Assembly: GCA_964499685.1 (NCBI GenBank)
Contig: CAZCLW010000001.1
Coordinates: forward strand, 119,859-183,858
Direction: 5' to 3'
Length of the DNA stretch: 64,000 bases
Origin: an uncultured Planctomycetales bacterium
GTDB lineage: Bacteria > Omnitrophota > Gorgyraeia > Zapsychrales > GWA2-47-8
The notes below the pieces were generated by a model. The model was not told the DNA's origin, did no database searches, and saw nothing but the letters and a program-made list of their open reading frames with translations. The translations under genes were made by a program, and so were the position numbers. Positions within the stretch are counted from its first letter, which is position 1. Each line of letters starts with the position of its first letter. Shown here piece after piece: positions 53,045 to 64,000 of this stretch.

Positions 53045-53046
53045 TT

Positions 53047-53460
53047 CTATTGAAATCCCGCAAAAACACCGGTGCCGAACTTTTCCAGTACTTCATCCAA
53101 CACTTGCACAAAACAGATCTGGCTTGTGTTATCGCCCCCGTCAAGAGTATTCCGTGTGGCGCAGAGGGTATAGCTGGTGCCGTCGGAGGCAATATCAATG
53201 CTGTAGGTAAAGTGAGAGTTCGGCATATTGAGATCGGGCGTAAGAAAACTCTGACTGATATCGCAATTATAAACTGCCGAGCCGGAAAGCCCATGGCAAT
53301 GTTCAAAGCTGCGCCGTAATTGCATCATTATGTTGAGCGCCTCGGCGCTCCGGGAATATTCGATCATACGGTACATGCGCGGCAGGCCCAACGCAGCCAG
53401 GACGCCCACGATGATAATGACAATAATGACTTCCAAAAGAGTAAAAGCTTTCTTATTCAT
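53047..53460 (-). CDS. Divergent prepilin-type pilin-like protein, paralog 4 (about 137 aa from MNKKAFTLLE; the ORF extends to 53487).
   Basis: MNKKAFTLLEVIIVIIIVGVLAALGLPRMYRMIEYSRSAEALNIMMQL.... It lacks the C-terminal YEGMEW motif of paralogs 1-3. TGATG coupling at 53460. Its stop at 53047 is 2 nt from the giant gene's stop (convergent). Confidence 0.7.
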   Translation of the reverse strand: MNKKAFTLLEVIIVIIIVGVLAALGLPRMYRMIEYSRSAEALNIMMQLRRSFEHCHGLSGSAVYNCDISQSFLTPDLNMPNSHFTYSIDIASDGTSYTLCATRNTLDGGDNTSQICFVQVLDEVLEKFGTGVFAGFQ

Positions 53461-53978
53461 CACCATTCCATCCCGTCGTAAATGCAATAACCTTTAATAT
53501 GGGTGCCGTGGGAAGAGCTGGAAGACAGGCTGATCCCGCCGGGGTCATCATTGACTAACATTGTTGAGCTCACAAGACTGCCGACCGTAAAAACCACGTT
53601 AGCTAAACAGTCCCCGTATATTCCGGAATCATCATCCCGCCAGGCGAATAAGGCATACCCCACGGACCCATCGGAAGGGTCGGTTACGGCCGATAAAAAT
53701 TCATACACAAATTTACTGGGCCCGGAAGGATCGTCAATGCCGAGCGCGGAAAAACTAAGGCAGTTTGTGTAAGCGGTCGTCCCGCCGCCTTTCATTAGGT
53801 AACACCGCTCAACGGCCGCCCGGATATTGCTGAGATGATTGATGGCCTCGATGGCGCGGGTGCGCTCGACCATGCGGATAAAACGGGGAAAGGCGAGGCT
53901 GGCCAGGACCGCGATAATGATGATGACGATAATGAGTTCAAGGAGAGTAAAGCCGGATCCCAGGCGTTTATTTACCAT
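53460..53978 (-). CDS. Prepilin-type pilin/pseudopilin-like protein, paralog 3, 172 aa.
   Basis: MVNKRLGSGFTLLELIIVIIIIAVLASLAFPRFIRMVERTRAIEAINHL...GYCIYDGMEW. It has Gly at -1 before Phe+1. It overlaps the upstream gene's stop by 7 nt. Confidence 0.8.
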   Translation of the reverse strand: MVNKRLGSGFTLLELIIVIIIIAVLASLAFPRFIRMVERTRAIEAINHLSNIRAAVERCYLMKGGGTTAYTNCLSFSALGIDDPSGPSKFVYEFLSAVTDPSDGSVGYALFAWRDDDSGIYGDCLANVVFTVGSLVSSTMLVNDDPGGISLSSSSSHGTHIKGYCIYDGMEW

Positions 53979-54493
53979 TCCATGCCTTCATACACACAGT
54001 GGCCGGTTATTGTTATTCCTTCATCGTTGCAATTGTGAAAGAAAATGACGCCTAGGGAATCGGGATGTGTTTGTACTCCCGAACCGCCGCAACCGCTCCA
54101 GGAAAGGGTGCAATCGGACGTAGTGGTGCCGCCATCCCGCGTATTGCGTACGGCTGTTAATCGATAGCCTATATTGGAAGAGGAGCCCCAGATACCGAAT
54201 TCAAAATGGCTGTTGGGAGCCGAAAATGGATTTTCGATCCCCAGCGTATTCCATAAACTCGGTGTCGGGGAGCCGGAGGCTGTCAGGCATGCCTGCAAAG
54301 CATTGTATCCTCCGCCGCGCATCAAATAGCAACGGTCGACAGCGGCCCGGATGGTCTGGAGTTGATTGATCGCCTCCAGGGCACGGGAGCGCTCGACCAT
54401 GCGGAAAAAACGGGGCAGGGCCAAAGCGGCCAGGACACCGACGATAATGATGACGATAATGACTTCAAGGAGGGTGAAAGCATTTTTGCGCAT
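53972..54493 (-). CDS. Prepilin-type pilin/pseudopilin-like protein, paralog 2. The ORF extends to 54520 as MCLRRHGMV...; the start at MRKNAFTLLE is preferred.
   Basis: MRKNAFTLLEVIIVIIIVGVLAALALPRFFRMVERSRALEAINQL...GHCVYEGMEW. The TGATG stop/start overlap with the upstream gene at 54493 gives a typical short leader peptide. Confidence 0.75.
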   Translation of the reverse strand: MRKNAFTLLEVIIVIIIVGVLAALALPRFFRMVERSRALEAINQLQTIRAAVDRCYLMRGGGYNALQACLTASGSPTPSLWNTLGIENPFSAPNSHFEFGIWGSSSNIGYRLTAVRNTRDGGTTTSDCTLSWSGCGGSGVQTHPDSLGVIFFHNCNDEGITITGHCVYEGMEW

Positions 54494-55002
54494 TACCATT
54501 CCATGCCTTCGTAGGCACAATAGCCTTTGATTTTAATGCCTCCGGAATTATTTCCCATCATGGCGACTCCGGCAACCACCGGCGCTCCCCAAGTCCAGTC
54601 GAAGCTGGTTACACCGTAGGGTGCGGTATCACCCATTACGCATGTGGATGAAATTCCCAGGTCGCGCGTGTTGCGTCTGGCATGCAGGACCCAACCGAAA
54701 GAGGTCTGACTGCCGGCCCAGGAGGCGTCATAATCGAAATGACTGTTGGGGCTGTTGGCCGGGTTTTCCGCGGCCCATACAATTTGACGGCAGTTGCTCC
54801 ATCCGGTAATGCCGCCGGTGCTTCCCAGATAACAGCGTTCAATGGCCGCCCGCAAACTGCTCAGCATACTGATTGCCTCCACAGCGCGGGTGCGCTCCAC
54901 CATGCGGAAAAATTTAGGCAAAGCAATGCTGGCCAAGACGCCCACAATGATAATGACGATAATGACTTCCAGAAGAGTAAAAGCTTTTTGTTTTTTAAGC
55001 AT
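54493..55002 (-). CDS. Prepilin-type N-terminal methylation-domain protein (type IV pilin / T2SS pseudopilin-like), paralog 1, 169 aa.
   Basis: N-terminus MLKKQKAFTLLEVIIVIIIVGVLA has the class-III signal/prepilin motif (FTLLE with Glu+5). A Cys pair brackets the C-terminal region. The C-terminal motif is GYCAYEGMEW. Its stop overlaps the next gene's start (TGATG). Confidence 0.8.
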   Translation of the reverse strand: MLKKQKAFTLLEVIIVIIIVGVLASIALPKFFRMVERTRAVEAISMLSSLRAAIERCYLGSTGGITGWSNCRQIVWAAENPANSPNSHFDYDASWAGSQTSFGWVLHARRNTRDLGISSTCVMGDTAPYGVTSFDWTWGAPVVAGVAMMGNNSGGIKIKGYCAYEGMEW

Positions 55003-55077
55003 ATATTTACCTTTATTTAAATTATAACATTAACTTATTTCGCGCTATTACGAAAATAAAAAAATCGATAGATGGTC

Positions 55078-55106
55078 TTGCATGCTAAAAATCACAATGT
55101 TATAAT
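55078..55106 (+). promoter_or_regulatory. Sigma-70-type promoter candidate for the + strand operon: -35 TTGCAT (55078-55083), 17-nt spacer, -10 TATAAT (55101-55106).
   Basis: Read directly in the sequence: ...cttgcatgctaaaaatcacaatgttataattcc.... An AAGGAG ribosome-binding site (RBS) lies at 55141-55146, before the GTG start at 55156. Confidence 0.4.
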
Positions 55107-55155
55107 TCCTTTAGTTTCTAAGGGTTATTGAAAAAAATTTAAGGAGATTTTAAAG

Positions 55156-56310
55156 GTGCATCTGATAAAGATCTCTTCCATAGTGTTCTTTTTGACCATC
55201 GCCGCGGGAACTGGTTTTGCCTCTCCCGTGGCAATGACTTCCCAATATTATGCCCAAAGAGGCCGTGAACTTTATGAAAAAGGCAAGCACGAGGCCGCCA
55301 TTACGGAATTCCATAAGGCCCTTCAGTCAGACCCTTCCAATCTGGAAGCCAAGCAGTATTTAGAAAAGCTCGGTGTCATGCCGGGAATCCTCTCTCGTCC
55401 GGAATCCACTCCCGTCAAGATCGCCAAATTAACACAAGAAGTAAAGGTCTATCAAGGCAAGCTGGCCGATTTGGAAACGGTCAACCAGTACTTGTCCTCC
55501 GACAACGAGCGATTGTGCGCGACCATGGAGGACAAAAATGAAGCGCTGGACGGCATGGGTATGCGGGTGAACATGCTGAAAGAAAAATTAAGCGAGATCA
55601 ACAGTCATCACAAAAAGCGTCTGGCCCGATACAAAAAACTCAACGACATTCAGAGCGATCAGCTTGAATTTCTGGAGCGCATGGTGCACCGGCAGAGAGA
55701 ATTGGTCGATCAGCGCGATCTTCTTCTCGACGAGCAGGAAGAAGAGCTTAAGGGCCTGAGCGACCATTTGGATTCTGTCAAGGATGTTTCCTTGGAAGAG
55801 ATCTATCGCGTCGAAGACCTGCGCCAGCAGGAAAAGGACCGGTATCAGGGGATGATCGCGGACCTGACCCGGAGTCTCCGGGAGAAAGAATGGGAGCTGG
55901 CGTCCTTGATCCCACCGGCGGAAACAGTTGAGAGCGATCTTTCAGCGCCCTACGCGGAGTTGGAGGAAAAGGTCCAGCTTTTGAAGAAAAAGGACAGCGA
56001 CATCGCGGCTTTAAAGGAAAAATTGGTCGAGGCCCGCGAACAGATCGGCCGATTGGAACAAAAAACGATAGGGGCGGAGGAGTCGCAGCAGGTTGACGCT
56101 TTAAAGTCCAGGGTAGAGACCATTCAGGGTGAATTGGACCAAAAGAACATTTCTCTCTCGGCCCAGGAGAATGATATTGCTATTCTTCAGGAACGGCTCA
56201 GCGATGCCCAGGAACAGCTGGGTATTGTCCAGGCCATTGTCGAAGATAAAGAGGGCCAGATCCTGGCCCTCGAAGCAGAAGTCAAGCAGATCAGACAAAG
56301 GTGCGAATAG
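55156..56310 (+). CDS. Secreted TPR-like / long coiled-coil protein (384 aa, GTG start).
   Basis: N-terminal signal peptide MHLIKISSIVFFLTIAAGTGFASP. TPR-like YAQRGRELYEKGKHEAAITEFHKALQSDPSNLEAKQYL. The rest is heptad-rich coiled coil. Confidence 0.7.
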   Translation: MHLIKISSIVFFLTIAAGTGFASPVAMTSQYYAQRGRELYEKGKHEAAITEFHKALQSDPSNLEAKQYLEKLGVMPGILSRPESTPVKIAKLTQEVKVYQGKLADLETVNQYLSSDNERLCATMEDKNEALDGMGMRVNMLKEKLSEINSHHKKRLARYKKLNDIQSDQLEFLERMVHRQRELVDQRDLLLDEQEEELKGLSDHLDSVKDVSLEEIYRVEDLRQQEKDRYQGMIADLTRSLREKEWELASLIPPAETVESDLSAPYAELEEKVQLLKKKDSDIAALKEKLVEAREQIGRLEQKTIGAEESQQVDALKSRVETIQGELDQKNISLSAQENDIAILQERLSDAQEQLGIVQAIVEDKEGQILALEAEVKQIRQRCE

Positions 56311-57048: not shown

Positions 57049-57142
57049 GCATTGAAGAACAAAATATTCATGTTGGGTGTCCTGGTGCTGGCCGCACTCT
57101 TCGGCGGGATTTTTTTACCCCTCGATCAAAGCGAGGATTTTA

Positions 57143-57774
57143 TGGCCGAGCGTAATAAAATGGTGGAAGAGCAGATCATCCGTCGGGGCATTGATGATGA
57201 AAACGTCATCAAGGCCTTGCGCAAGGTGGAACGCCATCTTTTCGTCCCGCCAAATGACCGGCCCCTGGCCTACCGCGACCATCCCTTGCCTATCGGGTTC
57301 AATCAAACCATTTCCCAACCTTATATTGTCGCGTACATGTCGCAGGCCGCGCATTTGAAAAAAGATGACAAAGTTCTGGAGATCGGAACGGGCTCAGGGT
57401 ATCAGGCTGCGGTCCTCGCCGAAATCGTCAGGGAAGTCTATACGATCGAACTGATTGAAGGGTTGGCCAAAAGCGCCCAAGAGCGGCTGGCCGAACTTGG
57501 TTACACAAACGTTTTTGTGCGTCACGGCGACGGTTATCAGGGCTGGCCCGAACATGCGCCTTATGATGTCATCATCGTCACGGCCGCACCCGAAACCATT
57601 CCACCCAAACTAATCGAACAGCTTAAACTCGACGGACGCATGGTCGTCCCCATCGGTTCCGTCTATCAGGAGCTTTATTTGATCACCAAAACACCGACCG
57701 GTGTCGTTCAGGAAGCACTGCTTCCGGTGAGATTCGTGCCTATGGTGCCCGATAATGGGGAAAATAATTTGTAA
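57143..57774 (+). CDS. pcm: Protein-L-isoaspartate O-methyltransferase. The track ORF begins at TTG 57052 and would add a hydrophobic 30-aa N-terminal extension. The ATG at 57143 gives the canonical ~210 aa.
   Basis: MAERNKMVEEQIIRRGI.D..V..A...V.RHLFVP, motif I VLEIGTGSGYQAAVLAEIV and PYDVIIVTAA...P..L..QL..DGRMVVPIG are the hallmark PCMT blocks. Confidence 0.8.
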
Positions 57775-57840
57775 CTCAGCAGTGAGATCTGCGTTTAAAG
57801 TATAGCGACGGACATTTCGTTTGAAGAAAGGACTCCCCTT

Positions 57841-59295
57841 ATGATAAGAAAATACATCCTTGCAGTTACTGTTGTTTTGGCATTGAGCGTACCGCAAACC
57901 GGCTTTTCCCAGGAACCTCTCACAGGCAAGACTCCTCCCGGCGTGATCAAGAGCACGGTCCAGGACCAGAAAAATGTGGCCGTGACCGTTTACAACAATA
58001 ATCTCGCCTTGATCAAGGACACGCGCGAGATCGATCTTCCCAACGGACAGGCGGAGCTGAGGTTCATGGATGTGGCCGCGCACATCATGCCGGTCACGGT
58101 CCTTATCAAATCGCTCAATGACCCGGATAAATTCTCCGTGCTGGAGCAAAATTATGAATACGACCTGATCAGCCCGCGGAAACTTATGGACAAGTATGTG
58201 GGCAAAAAGATCAAGATCATCGATTACAACGCGTATCAGGATAAGAAAGAAATATTGGAAGCCACTTTGCTCAGCAATAACGAAGGCGAGATCTACCGGA
58301 TCAATGATGAGATCTTCATCGGCCACGCCGGATACAAGGTCCTGCCGGAAATTCCCGCCAATCTCATCGCCAAGCCGACGTTGACCTGGCTTTACGCGAA
58401 TTCGGCCAAAAGGCCGCACCGGCTTGAGGTTTCTTATTTGACCAATAATCTGAACTGGAAGGCCGATTATGTCATGTCGGTCAATGACAGCGACACGCTG
58501 GCTGATCTTTCCGGCTGGGTGACCTTGGATAACAAAAGCGGGGCGACCTACACCGACGCGAAATTGAAACTTGTCGCCGGAGAGGTCAATCGGGTAGCCG
58601 ACTCTATGTCGAGAGCCAAGGCCGGAAGAATGGAATTTGCCATGGCGGCAGAAGCCCCGGGCTTTGTCGAAAAATCTTTTTTCGAATATCACATCTATGA
58701 CCTGCAGCGGCCGACCACCATCAAGGACAATCAGACCAAACAGGTGAGTTTGCTGGAGGCAGGCGGCGTCAAAGTGGAAAAAGAAATGACCGTGCGCGGC
58801 AATCAATATTACTATTATTCCTCTTACGCGGCCCAGAAAATGAAAACGCCCGTCGAGGTATATATCAAATTCAAGAACAGCCAGGACAATAACGTCGGGA
58901 TGCCGCTGCCGGCCGGCACCGTGCGCTTGTATAAAGCGGATTCCGACAAAAGCCTGCAGTTTATCGGCGAGGATGCGATCGAACACACACCCAAGGATGA
59001 AGAGGTAAAACTCAGGATCGGCGAGGCCTTCGATGTGGTCTCGGAGCGCGTGCAGACGGACTTCAAGATCGTGGCCTCCAATGTGTATGAATCAGCGTGG
59101 GAGATCTCGCTGCGCAACCATAAAAAAGAAGCGGTCACGGTCGGCGTGGTCGAGCCTTTGACCGCGGACTGGCAGATCCTGGAATCAACCCACTCTTATA
59201 ATAAGGAGAACGCGTTCACCATCCGCTTTGACGTCCCCGTTGCCCCCGACGAAGAAGTGAAGGTCAAATACCGTGCGCGGGTAAGGACACATTAA
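57841..59295 (+). CDS. Secreted protein, possibly of the DUF4139 (mucoidy-inhibitor MuiA-like) family (484 aa).
   Basis: Signal peptide MIRKYILAVTVVLALSVPQTGFSQ. Internal LSGWVTLDNKSGATYTDAKLKLVAGEVNRV resembles the conserved core of DUF4139 proteins, recalled from memory and not verified. Confidence 0.5.
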   Translation: MIRKYILAVTVVLALSVPQTGFSQEPLTGKTPPGVIKSTVQDQKNVAVTVYNNNLALIKDTREIDLPNGQAELRFMDVAAHIMPVTVLIKSLNDPDKFSVLEQNYEYDLISPRKLMDKYVGKKIKIIDYNAYQDKKEILEATLLSNNEGEIYRINDEIFIGHAGYKVLPEIPANLIAKPTLTWLYANSAKRPHRLEVSYLTNNLNWKADYVMSVNDSDTLADLSGWVTLDNKSGATYTDAKLKLVAGEVNRVADSMSRAKAGRMEFAMAAEAPGFVEKSFFEYHIYDLQRPTTIKDNQTKQVSLLEAGGVKVEKEMTVRGNQYYYYSSYAAQKMKTPVEVYIKFKNSQDNNVGMPLPAGTVRLYKADSDKSLQFIGEDAIEHTPKDEEVKLRIGEAFDVVSERVQTDFKIVASNVYESAWEISLRNHKKEAVTVGVVEPLTADWQILESTHSYNKENAFTIRFDVPVAPDEEVKVKYRARVRTH

Positions 59296-60608: not shown

Positions 60609-63600
60609 ATGTTTAGACACCTGCATAAAAGGCTTAAAAAAGGCCCGTTCCGGGCTTTATTTTTTATTTTTATATTTTCTTTCCTTAACTTGAACGTGCT
60701 TCCGGCGCAGGCTCAAACTTTGCCGATTTTGCCTCAACCCGGAAGCATGCTTCCGGTCAGCCCCGGTTTTGCCCCGCCTCACCTTAAGGGCATCAAAGTT
60801 TTCAGCGATAACCCGCTCCACTTTGATTTTTTCGTGCACCGCGGCGATACAGGTCTTTCGCAGGCCGAGATCCGCCAGGAATCCTTGAAACTGATCAAAT
60901 ATTTTTTGGCCACGCTCACCATCCCCGAGGATGAGCTTTGGGTCAACCTTTCTCCCTATGAAGAAAACCGCATTATCCCGGAACGTTTCGGCCAGACCGA
61001 AATGGGCCGCGATCTTTTGGCCCAGGATTATCTGCTCAAACAGCTGACCGCTTCTTTGATGTATCCGGAAGACGACCTGGGAAAAGAATTTTGGGGCCGC
61101 GTCTATAAGCGTGCGTATGAACTGTACGGCACAACGGAGATCCCCATCAATACTTTCAATAAAGTCTGGATCGTCCCTGACAAGGCCGTGGTCTTTGAGG
61201 ACGGCGATACGGCCTATGTCGTCGAAAGTCATTTGAAAGTCATGTTGGAAGAAGATTACGTTTCCATCAAGAATAATTTAAGCGACAAGCAGCGCGGCAC
61301 CGACCGGCTCAAAGAAGACGATGTGCGTATTTTGAGCAACGTCTCTTCGGGGATCGTCCGGGAGGTCCTTATCCCTGAGATCGAAAAAGAGATCAACGAG
61401 GGAAGGAACTTCTCCGGTTTGCGGCAGATCTATCATTCCATGATCCTGGCGGCCTGGTTCAAGCAGAACCTGAAGCAGTCGCTTCTGGGGCAAGTGTATG
61501 TCGACCAAAAGAAGACCAAAGGCATCGACACGGAAAATCCGCGCGATAAAGAGTTCATTTATGAGCAGTATCTGGAGGCGTTCCGCCGGGGCGTTTACAA
61601 TTTCATCAAGGAGGATTATGACCCGGTGACCCAGGAAGCCGTTGCGCGGCGTTACGTTTCGGGCGGCTTTCAGGGCGATGCTTTGTTCAGCCCGCAGGTG
61701 CTCAAGGCCGTCAATCGTGACCGTGTTTTTCAGCCTGACGGGCGGATAAACCCGGCGATGCTTTCAGTCAGGGCCCAGCAGAACATCGTGGCCCTGCCGC
61801 AGACCGCCGCCGAAGGCGACCTTTTCCGGGTGGAAACTAATTTTTATGAATTCGGCCGGCAGGCCGATCGACAGGAAGTCCGCCGTATCGCCCGAGGCAG
61901 TCAAGCCAACCCTGCCATGCTCGGTAAAAAACTGAGCAGCTTCCCGCAAGGAATAACACATCCGCGTTTAACGGAATTCAGGGAATTGGCCGCGGCCTTA
62001 TCCGAAAGGACTCTTCTCAGGGCAAGGTCTCTCCCTGAGGTCGATCAGGATAAAAGGAACTTGAGTTATGAATTGAGTTATGTCCTGTTGACTTCCGCGG
62101 CCTTAGGTGACCGTCAAACCTTTGAAGAAACGATGCGAAAAATGGAGGCGATCGTCGGTCAACCTTATACGGATGCCAATGTCCGCAGCAATGATCACAA
62201 TGCTTGGATGATGTGGATGCTCGGGCGCATGATGCTCGCCGAGGCCATGATCTCAGGGTCGAAGTCTCAAAAGATGAATGACCTTCAGGCCAAGATGGAT
62301 GAATTTTCACCATGGGCCTACAAAGGCCATCCCATGACGATCTGGGGAGAGGGCTACCGTCTCATGTGGCATGCGGTCGAGAACTCGGCTGAATATGACC
62401 GCCTCAAGTCTTCGATCGGAGAAAGATTGGGCGCCATGCCGGAGCGGAATCCCGATGAGGTCGATAATAAAGCCTGGGCCCACGTTGAGACATTCTATGC
62501 CTCTGCTTTAGCGGGTGACTTAGATACATATGACGGATTGGAAGAAGATACATTGCGTCTGGTCAGGTCCATGCGGCGGGTGGAAGGGTTCCAGGCCTGG
62601 GCGCTTGGTCAAATGCGCCTGGCAGCGGCTTTGATGAACGACCGGGTTTTTATCGAAAATACCGCGGAATTTGCAAAAGATATCATCGATCGTCCCGATA
62701 TACAGCCGCTCGACAAAGTAATGGCCCTGAACATGACCATTGCGGCGGATGCCGTGTCTGTCAATCCCGCGATGTTGGCCCAATCGCCTTCTGAAACGCC
62801 GGATGACTGGGGAAGCGAACGGGGCAATCTGGCTAAGAAATTGGGCGCCATTCCACACCGTGAGGTCAAAGGAAGACCGGAAAATTCTTACAGCGTGAAC
62901 CGGGCGGTGCGATTGGCTTTTGAAGCGAACAAGACTGAAGAAATACCTGAGGAGATCCGGACTGCTTTAATGGAATATTTGGACGAAGAGGAAGTTGCCA
63001 TGGCAGTCGGGGATACAGGTCTTACAGCGAAAATATTGCAGGCCAAGGCGACTGACGCCGAGACACGGCTCATCCTCGTCGAGGATATACAGGCCAATTC
63101 GCCGGCCATTGTCATCCGTGATGCCGATAATTTTCAGGTAGCGCATATCGGCCCTTCCCGGCAATCGCTCTATCTGGGTAAAAGATTCGTCGAGCAGCTC
63201 CATCAATCAAATTCCGCGGAGGACAAGGAGATCTTGAACGCGTTTTTGACCCGTGAACTGGTAGCCCTGGTCAAGTTCAATGAAGTTTACACCGGGAACA
63301 ATTATGACGACGCGATCCGCCAAGCCGAGGATATAGCCGAGAATTTTGAGAAGATGCTTTTATCCCGACGCTTAGGGAGTGCAGACCGTTTGGACGGCCG
63401 TTTGCGGCAGGCGGTGAATGAGTTCCTGGAAGTCGGCCGGCCGCAATTCCATTTTGGTATCCGTAGCGGCCTGCAGTTGATGGCCGGTCGTCACAATATC
63501 AGTCTTACATCCGACCCGCTGGATAATCTTGCCGTTCACAAGGAGTTTATCGAGAAGGCCTTTAATTTGCCAGTCTCTCAGCAAACAACGCTTCTGCGGA

Positions 63601-63999
63601 ATTACCGCAGCTTTATTGACACTAACCGGGTTTTTATCGACCTGTTCTTTTCTCCGGATGAACGGCAGGGATTGGAGCAGCTTAGGCCGCGTATCGGTTA
63701 TTATCAGGGAGACCACTTGACCTCCTTCCCTGCGCAGGAATTAATGGCCTTTGACCATATCCGCCGGACCCGGCCGCAAATGGTTGAACAAGAAATTGAA
63801 CTGGCCAAAAGAGATATCCCGCCGATCACGGCGGAACTTCCCTCTGAGGAGCTCTTCCGTCGTTTGCGGGAGCATTCGCAGAATATTTTGTCCGGGCTGG
63901 CCATCCATCCGACCCTCCGGAACCAGCTCACGCAGGAAGTAGAAAGCCATCTGTACAAAGAGCTTATTAGCCGTCCCTCGACGGACAGACGTATTGTGT
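60609..63999 (+). CDS. Large secreted protein, 3'-truncated by the window edge (>=1130 aa). Unknown function; possibly a second giant gene.
   Basis: ATG at 60609. I translated the frame by hand and found no stop through nt 63999. The N-terminus MFRHLHKRLKKGPFRALFFIFIFSFLNLNVLPAQAQT is a signal peptide (AQA|QT). It is absent from the ORF track only because it has no stop in the window. The minus-strand ORFs 60657..61232, 61278..61508 etc. are shadows. Confidence 0.75.
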   Translation, partial: MFRHLHKRLKKGPFRALFFIFIFSFLNLNVLPAQAQTLPILPQPGSMLPVSPGFAPPHLKGIKVFSDNPLHFDFFVHRGDTGLSQAEIRQESLKLIKYFLATLTIPEDELWVNLSPYEENRIIPERFGQTEMGRDLLAQDYLLKQLTASLMYPEDDLGKEFWGRVYKRAYELYGTTEIPINTFNKVWIVPDKAVVFEDGDTAYVVESHLKVMLEEDYVSIKNNLSDKQRGTDRLKEDDVRILSNVSSGIVREVLIPEIEKEINEGRNFSGLRQIYHSMILAAWFKQNLKQSLLGQVYVDQKKTKGIDTENPRDKEFIYEQYLEAFRRGVYNFIKEDYDPVTQEAVARRYVSGGFQGDALFSPQVLKAVNRDRVFQPDGRINPAMLSVRAQQNIVALPQTAAEGDLFRVETNFYEFGRQADRQEVRRIARGSQANPAMLGKKLSSFPQGITHPRLTEFRELAAALSERTLLRARSLPEVDQDKRNLSYELSYVLLTSAALGDRQTFEETMRKMEAIVGQPYTDANVRSNDHNAWMMWMLGRMMLAEAMISGSKSQKMNDLQAKMDEFSPWAYKGHPMTIWGEGYRLMWHAVENSAEYDRLKSSIGERLGAMPERNPDEVDNKAWAHVETFYASALAGDLDTYDGLEEDTLRLVRSMRRVEGFQAWALGQMRLAAALMNDRVFIENTAEFAKDIIDRPDIQPLDKVMALNMTIAADAVSVNPAMLAQSPSETPDDWGSERGNLAKKLGAIPHREVKGRPENSYSVNRAVRLAFEANKTEEIPEEIRTALMEYLDEEEVAMAVGDTGLTAKILQAKATDAETRLILVEDIQANSPAIVIRDADNFQVAHIGPSRQSLYLGKRFVEQLHQSNSAEDKEILNAFLTRELVALVKFNEVYTGNNYDDAIRQAEDIAENFEKMLLSRRLGSADRLDGRLRQAVNEFLEVGRPQFHFGIRSGLQLMAGRHNISLTSDPLDNLAVHKEFIEKAFNLPVSQQTTLLRNYRSFIDTNRVFIDLFFSPDERQGLEQLRPRIGYYQGDHLTSFPAQELMAFDHIRRTRPQMVEQEIELAKRDIPPITAELPSEELFRRLREHSQNILSGLAIHPTLRNQLTQEVESHLYKELISRPSTDRRIV

Positions 64000-64000
64000 T

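Follow-up and report, generated by a model that had tools for sequence, protein, structure and literature searches.

Introduction

Giant genes of Omnitrophota are usually flanked by genes resembling those of type II secretion systems (T2SS) and type IV pili, together with small genes whose products carry class III signal peptides (10.1101/2023.11.21.568195; 10.64898/2026.06.07.730766). In the published arrangement, a conserved locus with gspD/E/F is found upstream of the giant gene, and pilZ genes are on the downstream side (10.1101/2023.11.21.568195; 10.64898/2026.06.07.730766), and 13 of 14 giants were reported to have secretion or pilus flanks (bioRxiv 10.64898/2026.06.07.730766). The association of pilus and secretion genes with giant genes in this phylum is, in other words, already published. 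A type IVa-like pilus is near-universal in Omnitrophota (PMC10066038). The non-core minor pilins PilX, PilV and ComP of Neisseria are also among the closest known systems, and a tandem pilin pair, PilA1/PilA2, has been described in Legionella (PMC13170364). Here we describe a cassette of four small prepilin genes, g1 to g4, in a 64-kb stretch of contig CAZCLW010000001.1 from an Omnitrophota genome (the whole stretch is referred to as the window). The cassette converges on a giant open reading frame (ORF), and its genes are probably four accessory type IVa pilin paralogs that are co-transcribed and coupled in translation.

The four prepilin genes and their products

An earlier note on this DNA had described four tandem genes with prepilin motifs, and all four were found where it had placed them, as consecutive ORFs on the minus strand:

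54493-55002, minus strand: g1, prepilin of 169 aa, leader MLKKQKA followed by FTLLEVIIVIII, long sub-type, tail GYCAYEGMEW.
53972-54499, minus strand: g2, prepilin of 175 aa from MVMRKNA (173 from MRKNA), six Cys, tail GHCVYEGMEW; public-collection entry P0002, 173 aa.
53460-53978, minus strand: g3, prepilin of 172 aa, leader MVNKRLGSG, tail GYCIYDGMEW; public-collection entry P0121.
53047-53466, minus strand: g4, prepilin of 139 aa and last gene of the cassette, leader MVMNKKA, short canonical-type head, tail FGTGVFAGFQ; public-collection entry P0101, 137 aa.

Each product has a basic leader of 7–9 residues followed by FTLLE(V/L)IIVIII, and in all four Glu5 is placed inside a hydrophobic tract of about 21 residues, FTLLE(V/L)IIVIII(V/I)(G/A)VLA(A/S)(L/I)(A/G)(L/F)P. 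No other prepilin motif was present in the six frames of the window. The profile PF07963 (N_methyl), which the earlier note had proposed as a check, was passed by g1–g4 with 32.5, 25.2, 26.2 and 26.2 bits (gathering threshold, GA, 21.2), and TIGR02532 with 29.1, 27.3, 27.0 and 27.7 bits (cut-off 16.3). Since the window holds no further prepilin motif and all four proteins pass curated hidden Markov model cut-offs, the cassette is more than a chance occurrence.

Type IVa prepilins have leaders shorter than about 10 residues, Phe at +1 and mature lengths of about 130–170 aa. The four proteins agree with this description, having leaders of 7–9 residues, Phe+1 and mature lengths of 132–168 aa. The equivalog profiles for GspG, GspH, ComG and PilA matched only the N-terminal helix, with scores far under their cut-offs. 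For TIGR01710 (T2SS GspG) the scores were 27.3–41.7 bits against 88.85 required, and profile positions 1–56 of 134 were aligned.

The best sequence matches in the PDB are N-terminal domains of geopilins, and the Thermus pilins 6xxd and 6xxe are also found among the matches. Together with a mature aromatic content of 11.9–12.3% and the prediction of conductive pilins in some Omnitrophota (PMC10066038), the geopilin matches might point to conductive “e-pilins”, and weak matches to PF16732 (ComP_DUS) might point to ComP-like DNA receptors. We regard such functions as highly improbable. The PDB matches span only alpha1, the universal N-terminal helix, and the mature proteins carry a full globular head, in contrast to the 61–90 residues of geopilins. 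The limit on the aromatic-free gap in e-pilin prediction is about 22 residues, and the longest such gaps in g1–g4, 23–26 residues, are just over it. PF16732 scored 14.7, 20.1 and 19.1 bits for g1, g2 and g4 against a GA of 27.3, and g3 gave no match.

Family and genomic contexts of relatives

A word-indexed search returned 127 relatives, and all organism names attached to them were Candidatus Omnitrophota. Searching 1.84 billion representatives with a profile yielded 1,937 proteins at E ≤ 1e-10, and the best match in a scan of GTDB representatives was 49% identical. The typical family member has 137–143 aa, exactly two Cys (ERCYL...C) and the ending GTGxFxGI(K/Q). One canonical member, P0036 (46% identical to g1; locus L083), is encoded directly after genes for PilM_2, PilO, Secretin, T2SSE (with MshEN) and T2SSF, and precedes four heterogeneous prepilin ORFs with different N-terminal motifs that form a separate minor-pilin set. 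Because P0036 adjoins this machinery cluster, the family is identified as the major pilin of the near-universal Omnitrophota type IVa-like pilus.

The canonical pilin is often found in tandem in other Omnitrophota loci (L003, L005, L008, L013 and L043), and the longer variants occur away from machinery genes, as orphan singletons or tandem arrays. For example, P0093 is one of an orphan pair flanked by ftsH and eno. The closest relative beyond this contig, P0003, stands alone, with a TrkA-C-like gene on one side and a gene for a membrane protein on the other. The contig of P0123 carries four consecutive same-strand genes encoding 159–168 aa, the first junction of which is also a 7-nt overlap.

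Genes for PMT_2 (GT-C type) glycosyltransferases were observed near family pilins in two unrelated loci, at 13309-15114 of L083, after the pilin and minor-pilin cluster, and at 2650-4131 of L088, directly upstream of the solitary P0124. These neighbors hint at pilin glycosylation. No PMT_2-type gene is present near the cassette of the window.

Relations among the four copies

The four proteins are 42–52% identical in pairs over their whole length and 51–77% identical across the first 53 mature residues. The earlier note had claimed a stretch RMVERTRAxEAI...RAA.ERCYL for all four; it holds for g1–g3, in the form RMVER(T/S)RA.EAI...RAA.(E/D)RCYL, but not for g4, which has RMIEYSRSAEAL...RRSFEHCHG at this place. 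The fourth gene had been taken to be the diverged one. We find it to be the reverse: g4 is the less derived copy, because it lacks an insertion of about 30 residues present in the others, keeps the canonical family ending GTGxFxG and has the canonical short pilins as its nearest neighbors in the tree. In that tree, g1–g3 and P0003 cluster weakly (77/200 bootstraps).

Even within their conserved 5' part, the copies are just 71–78% identical as DNA, which makes the duplications old. Recent duplication, or gene-conversion cassettes in the style of antigenic variation, finds no support in view of this identity and the absence of long inverted repeats, and nothing suggests active recombination. A duplication of a two-gene unit (g1g2 to g3g4), hinted at by a repeat labeled D2, is unsupported by the pairwise identities and by the tree.

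Predicted fold, cysteines and the long sub-type

An AlphaFold2 model of g1 was obtained from the 118-sequence family alignment (predicted local distance difference test, pLDDT, 80.5; predicted template modeling score, pTM, 0.73). It has a long helix (residues 10–60), a short helix (69–75) and four strands, and its head is predicted to consist of alpha1-C packed on a four-stranded antiparallel beta-meander, which corresponds to the lollipop fold of pilins.

The insertion of about 30 residues follows the RNTxD strand and, together with a Cys in the last strand, is common to g1–g3, P0003 and P0124. Cysteines are found at positions 57, 71, 121 and 162 of g1, at 57, 71, 130, 137, 157 and 168 of g2, at 59, 73, 124 and 165 of g3 and at 57, 68, 102 and 118 of g4. 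In g1 numbering, C121 and C162 are invariant in g1–g3 and P0003; in other long variants the first of this pair is conserved, whose partner then lies a strand earlier, within an xLC motif. A second disulfide, C121–C162, probably staples the insertion. The earlier note had deduced a disulfide-bonded D-region from a single Cys pair; every protein has at least two pairs, and the family-wide pair C57–C71 is outside the D-region.

The ending G(Y/H)CxY(E/D)GMEW, noted before for the first three proteins, was confirmed in g1–g3. The pattern Y-x-G-M-x-W recurs in many long variants of distant clusters, and endings of the form GM(K/S/R/Q)W occur in many distant members. The proteins g1–g3 represent a long sub-type distinguished by the insertion of about 30 aa, an extra Cys pair and the Y-x-G-M-x-W tail. 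We considered a dual-coding origin of this tail, since the YEG codons supply the Shine-Dalgarno (SD)-like motif GAAGG and the E-W-stop codons hold the ATG of the next gene. It was rejected as the main cause because two solitary members keep the tail, P0124 (GHCNYEGMEW, with no same-strand gene downstream) and P0122 (...YEGMKW). The YEGMEW-type tail is a feature of the sub-family at the protein level, merely exploited by the overlap.

The residue before the cleavage site

The residue at −1 is Ala in g1, g2 and g4, which bears out the earlier count of three, and Gly in g3. A review of type IV filaments describes a Gly at the end of the leader as invariable in bacteria and as critical (PMC4471445). 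Over the family alignment, Ala is found at −1 in 17 of 118 members. It is present in 11/22 long members (at least 150 aa), among which is the sub-type of g1–g3, versus 6/95 short ones (Fisher p = 5e-6, for sequences that are not independent). Ala is the only −1 substitution known to be partly tolerated by the PilD peptidase of Pseudomonas aeruginosa. The frequent Ala of the long members represents a departure, if a small one, from the “always Gly” rule for bacteria. It suggests either that the prepilin peptidase is permissive or that accessory pilins are inefficiently processed by design, in a phylum that is thought to attach to other cells by pili.

Gene junctions and expression signals

The three junctions and the candidate signals ahead of g1, read directly from the sequence, are as follows:

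54493-54499, minus strand: g1/g2 junction, ATGGTAA, 7-nt overlap, GAAGG 6 nt 5' of the ATG.
53972-53978, minus strand: g2/g3 junction, ATGGTAA, 7-nt overlap, GAAGG 6 nt 5' of the ATG.
53460-53466, minus strand: g3/g4 junction, ATGGTGA, 7-nt overlap, SD-like GACGGG 6 nt 5' of the ATG.
55010-55029, minus strand: candidate expression signals of g1, namely the extended −10 TGTTATAAT (TG 55028-55029, TATAAT 55021-55026) and AAGG (55010-55013).

At each of the three junctions the downstream ATG sits within the E-W-stop codons of the preceding gene. The description of the junctions as TGATG or 7-nt overlaps holds: the overlap is found at 3/3, and a second ATG in g2 and g4 provides the alternatives TAATG or TGATG. 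Upstream of g1, AAGG is located 7 nt before the ATG and the extended −10-like box 18 nt upstream. A consensus promoter scan did not call this candidate promoter, because its −35 hexamer is poor. No Rfam elements were found in 52500-56000. We infer that g1–g4 are transcribed as a single unit from the AT-rich spacer 55003-55155 and that the overlaps couple their translation. Together with the internal SD-like motifs, these 7-nt overlaps may hold the four products in fixed proportion.

Proposed function of the cassette

For a set of accessory pilins, we propose the following. Cleavage before Phe+1, after either Ala or Gly, would be carried out by a prepilin peptidase whose gene lies outside the window, and a PilB/PilC/PilMNOPQ machine encoded elsewhere would polymerize the subunits. 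The products of g1–g4 might form alternative fibers or mix into the main fiber, where the variable stapled insertion could alter the surface or the adhesive properties of the fiber.

Several observations weigh against this proposal. The efficiency of processing is uncertain for the three of four proteins with Ala rather than Gly at −1. A search for pilD, pilB, pilC or gsp genes in the neighborhood, suggested in the earlier note, came out negative, and the window as a whole contains no gspD/E/F, no prepilin peptidase (pilD), no assembly ATPase (pilB), no platform (pilC) and no secretin gene; the machine encoded elsewhere is deduced from relatives only. In the model of g1, residues 121–140 of the insertion are poorly defined (pLDDT 51–53), and the predicted second disulfide, C121–C162, falls in this low-confidence part. 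Finally, tight coupling of four pilins would fit a priming or tip complex equally well.

In that last alternative, g1–g4 would be minor pilins of a complex like FimU-PilVWXE or GspHIJK instead of subunits of the fiber body. We consider it unlikely, given that all four are paralogs within the major-pilin family, of similar size and with Glu5 kept. Moreover, the minor pilins of the machinery-bearing relative, that of P0036, are a separate group of four heterogeneous prepilins, and no large GspK- or PilY1-like partner was found in the window.

The interpretation given in the earlier note is partly supported. The cassette is a real and ordinary accessory-pilin set, part of the normal surface-fiber repertoire of Omnitrophota, and no new system. 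It is of modest specialist interest as an example of a recognizable long sub-type of Omnitrophota pilin that occurs as orphan singletons or in tandem arrays.

The giant gene and other neighbors

Beside g4 lies the giant gene:

41-53044, plus strand: giant ORF of 17,667 codons, convergent with the cassette, with its stop 2 nt from that of g4 (the g4 stop codon begins at 53047).

The 2-nt distance between the two stops, 53044 and 53047, is as first reported. The Pfam domains of the giant ORF include an Rce1-like CAAX protease, ADK/AAA_17, HPr, APH, HEAT, several methyltransferases, an alpha/beta hydrolase, sigma70_r4, GT2, Pkinase and a strong GDE_C (amylo-alpha-1,6-glucosidase, 336 bits). None of its Pfam domains is pilus-related. 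Hydrophobic segments are numerous in the protein, and no homolog of its last 698 residues was found at E ≤ 1e-3.

The position of the cassette, with stops just 2 nt apart, and the secretion or pilus flanks of 13/14 published giants (bioRxiv 10.64898/2026.06.07.730766) could suggest that g1–g4 supply the pseudopilins for a T2SS-like system whose dedicated role is the export, anchoring or display of the giant protein. This appears quite unlikely. A more specific version of such a partnership seems very doubtful to us, namely that a short pseudopilus or fiber extrudes, tethers or presents the membrane-spanning protein of 17,667 residues during attachment to prey or host, with the long Ala−1 pilins as a reserved, separately processed class. 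Within 10 kb of family members, no ORF of at least 2,000 aa was found in 80 related loci, and none is located beside the closest relatives either. The relatives were never found beside a giant gene, and the earlier idea that the cassette could relate to display or export of the megaprotein is unsupported. Because no giant ORF lies near the relatives, and no machinery genes or pilus domain are found here, we treat the adjacency as an unproven coincidence, explained most simply by gene packing; a dedicated link ranges from quite unlikely to very doubtful. One should not read too much into the position of the cassette next to this gene.

No terminator was found between the convergent stops of g4 and the giant ORF, and terminator-like sites are no commoner than in shuffled sequence. 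With the stops 2 nt apart and no hairpin terminator nearby, transcripts from either side would run antisense into the other.

The remaining neighbors are on the side of g1:

55156-56310, plus strand: gene divergent from the cassette, sharing the AT-rich 153-bp spacer with g1, encoding 384 aa with a signal-like N-terminus.
57052-59295, plus strand: gene for a PCMT protein-L-isoaspartate O-methyltransferase (210 bits), followed by one for a 484-aa DUF4139 protein with a signal-like N-terminus.
60609-64000, plus strand: another large ORF, longer than 1,130 aa and cut off by the right end of the window, which starts with a hydrophobic, signal-like segment at the N-terminus and has no match in Pfam at E ≤ 1e-3.

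The product of the divergent gene matches TPR_11 below threshold (25.7 bits, GA 26.8) and has a long coiled coil with weak similarity to the crescentin rod; it has no known link to pili.

Comparison with known systems

The products of g1–g4 resemble the type IVa major pilins (PilA/PilE of Pseudomonas, Neisseria and Myxococcus) in their short basic leader, Phe+1, Glu5 and hydrophobic alpha1-N, and in the predicted packing of the alpha1-C head on a beta-meander. As in these systems, one family member is encoded beside pilM/O, secretin, pilB and pilC. They differ from them in having Ala at −1 in 3/4 proteins and in the location of the family-wide Cys pair (C57–C71) at the end of alpha1 and the alpha-beta loop, not in the C-terminal D-region. 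The long sub-type adds the second Cys pair and the Y-x-G-M-x-W C-terminus, and sequence similarity to solved pilins is limited to alpha1.

Features in common with the T2SS pseudopilins GspG-K are the class III signal peptide and an N-terminal helix that matches TIGR01710 at positions 1–56. The published giant-gene loci of Omnitrophota (West-Roberts et al. 2023; the 2026 complete-genome preprint) are similar in that the phylum is the same and a giant gene has small neighbors with class III signal peptides. Here, however, only four pilins are seen, which converge on the giant gene from its 3' side, in a window that excludes the region upstream of this gene.

Thermus thermophilus PilA4/PilA5, of wide and narrow pili, and Legionella PilA1/PilA2 offer a further parallel, as several major-pilin-like paralogs are present per genome, some of them in tandem. 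The cassette described here differs from these alternative pilins in comprising four copies, in overlapping frames, away from any machinery.
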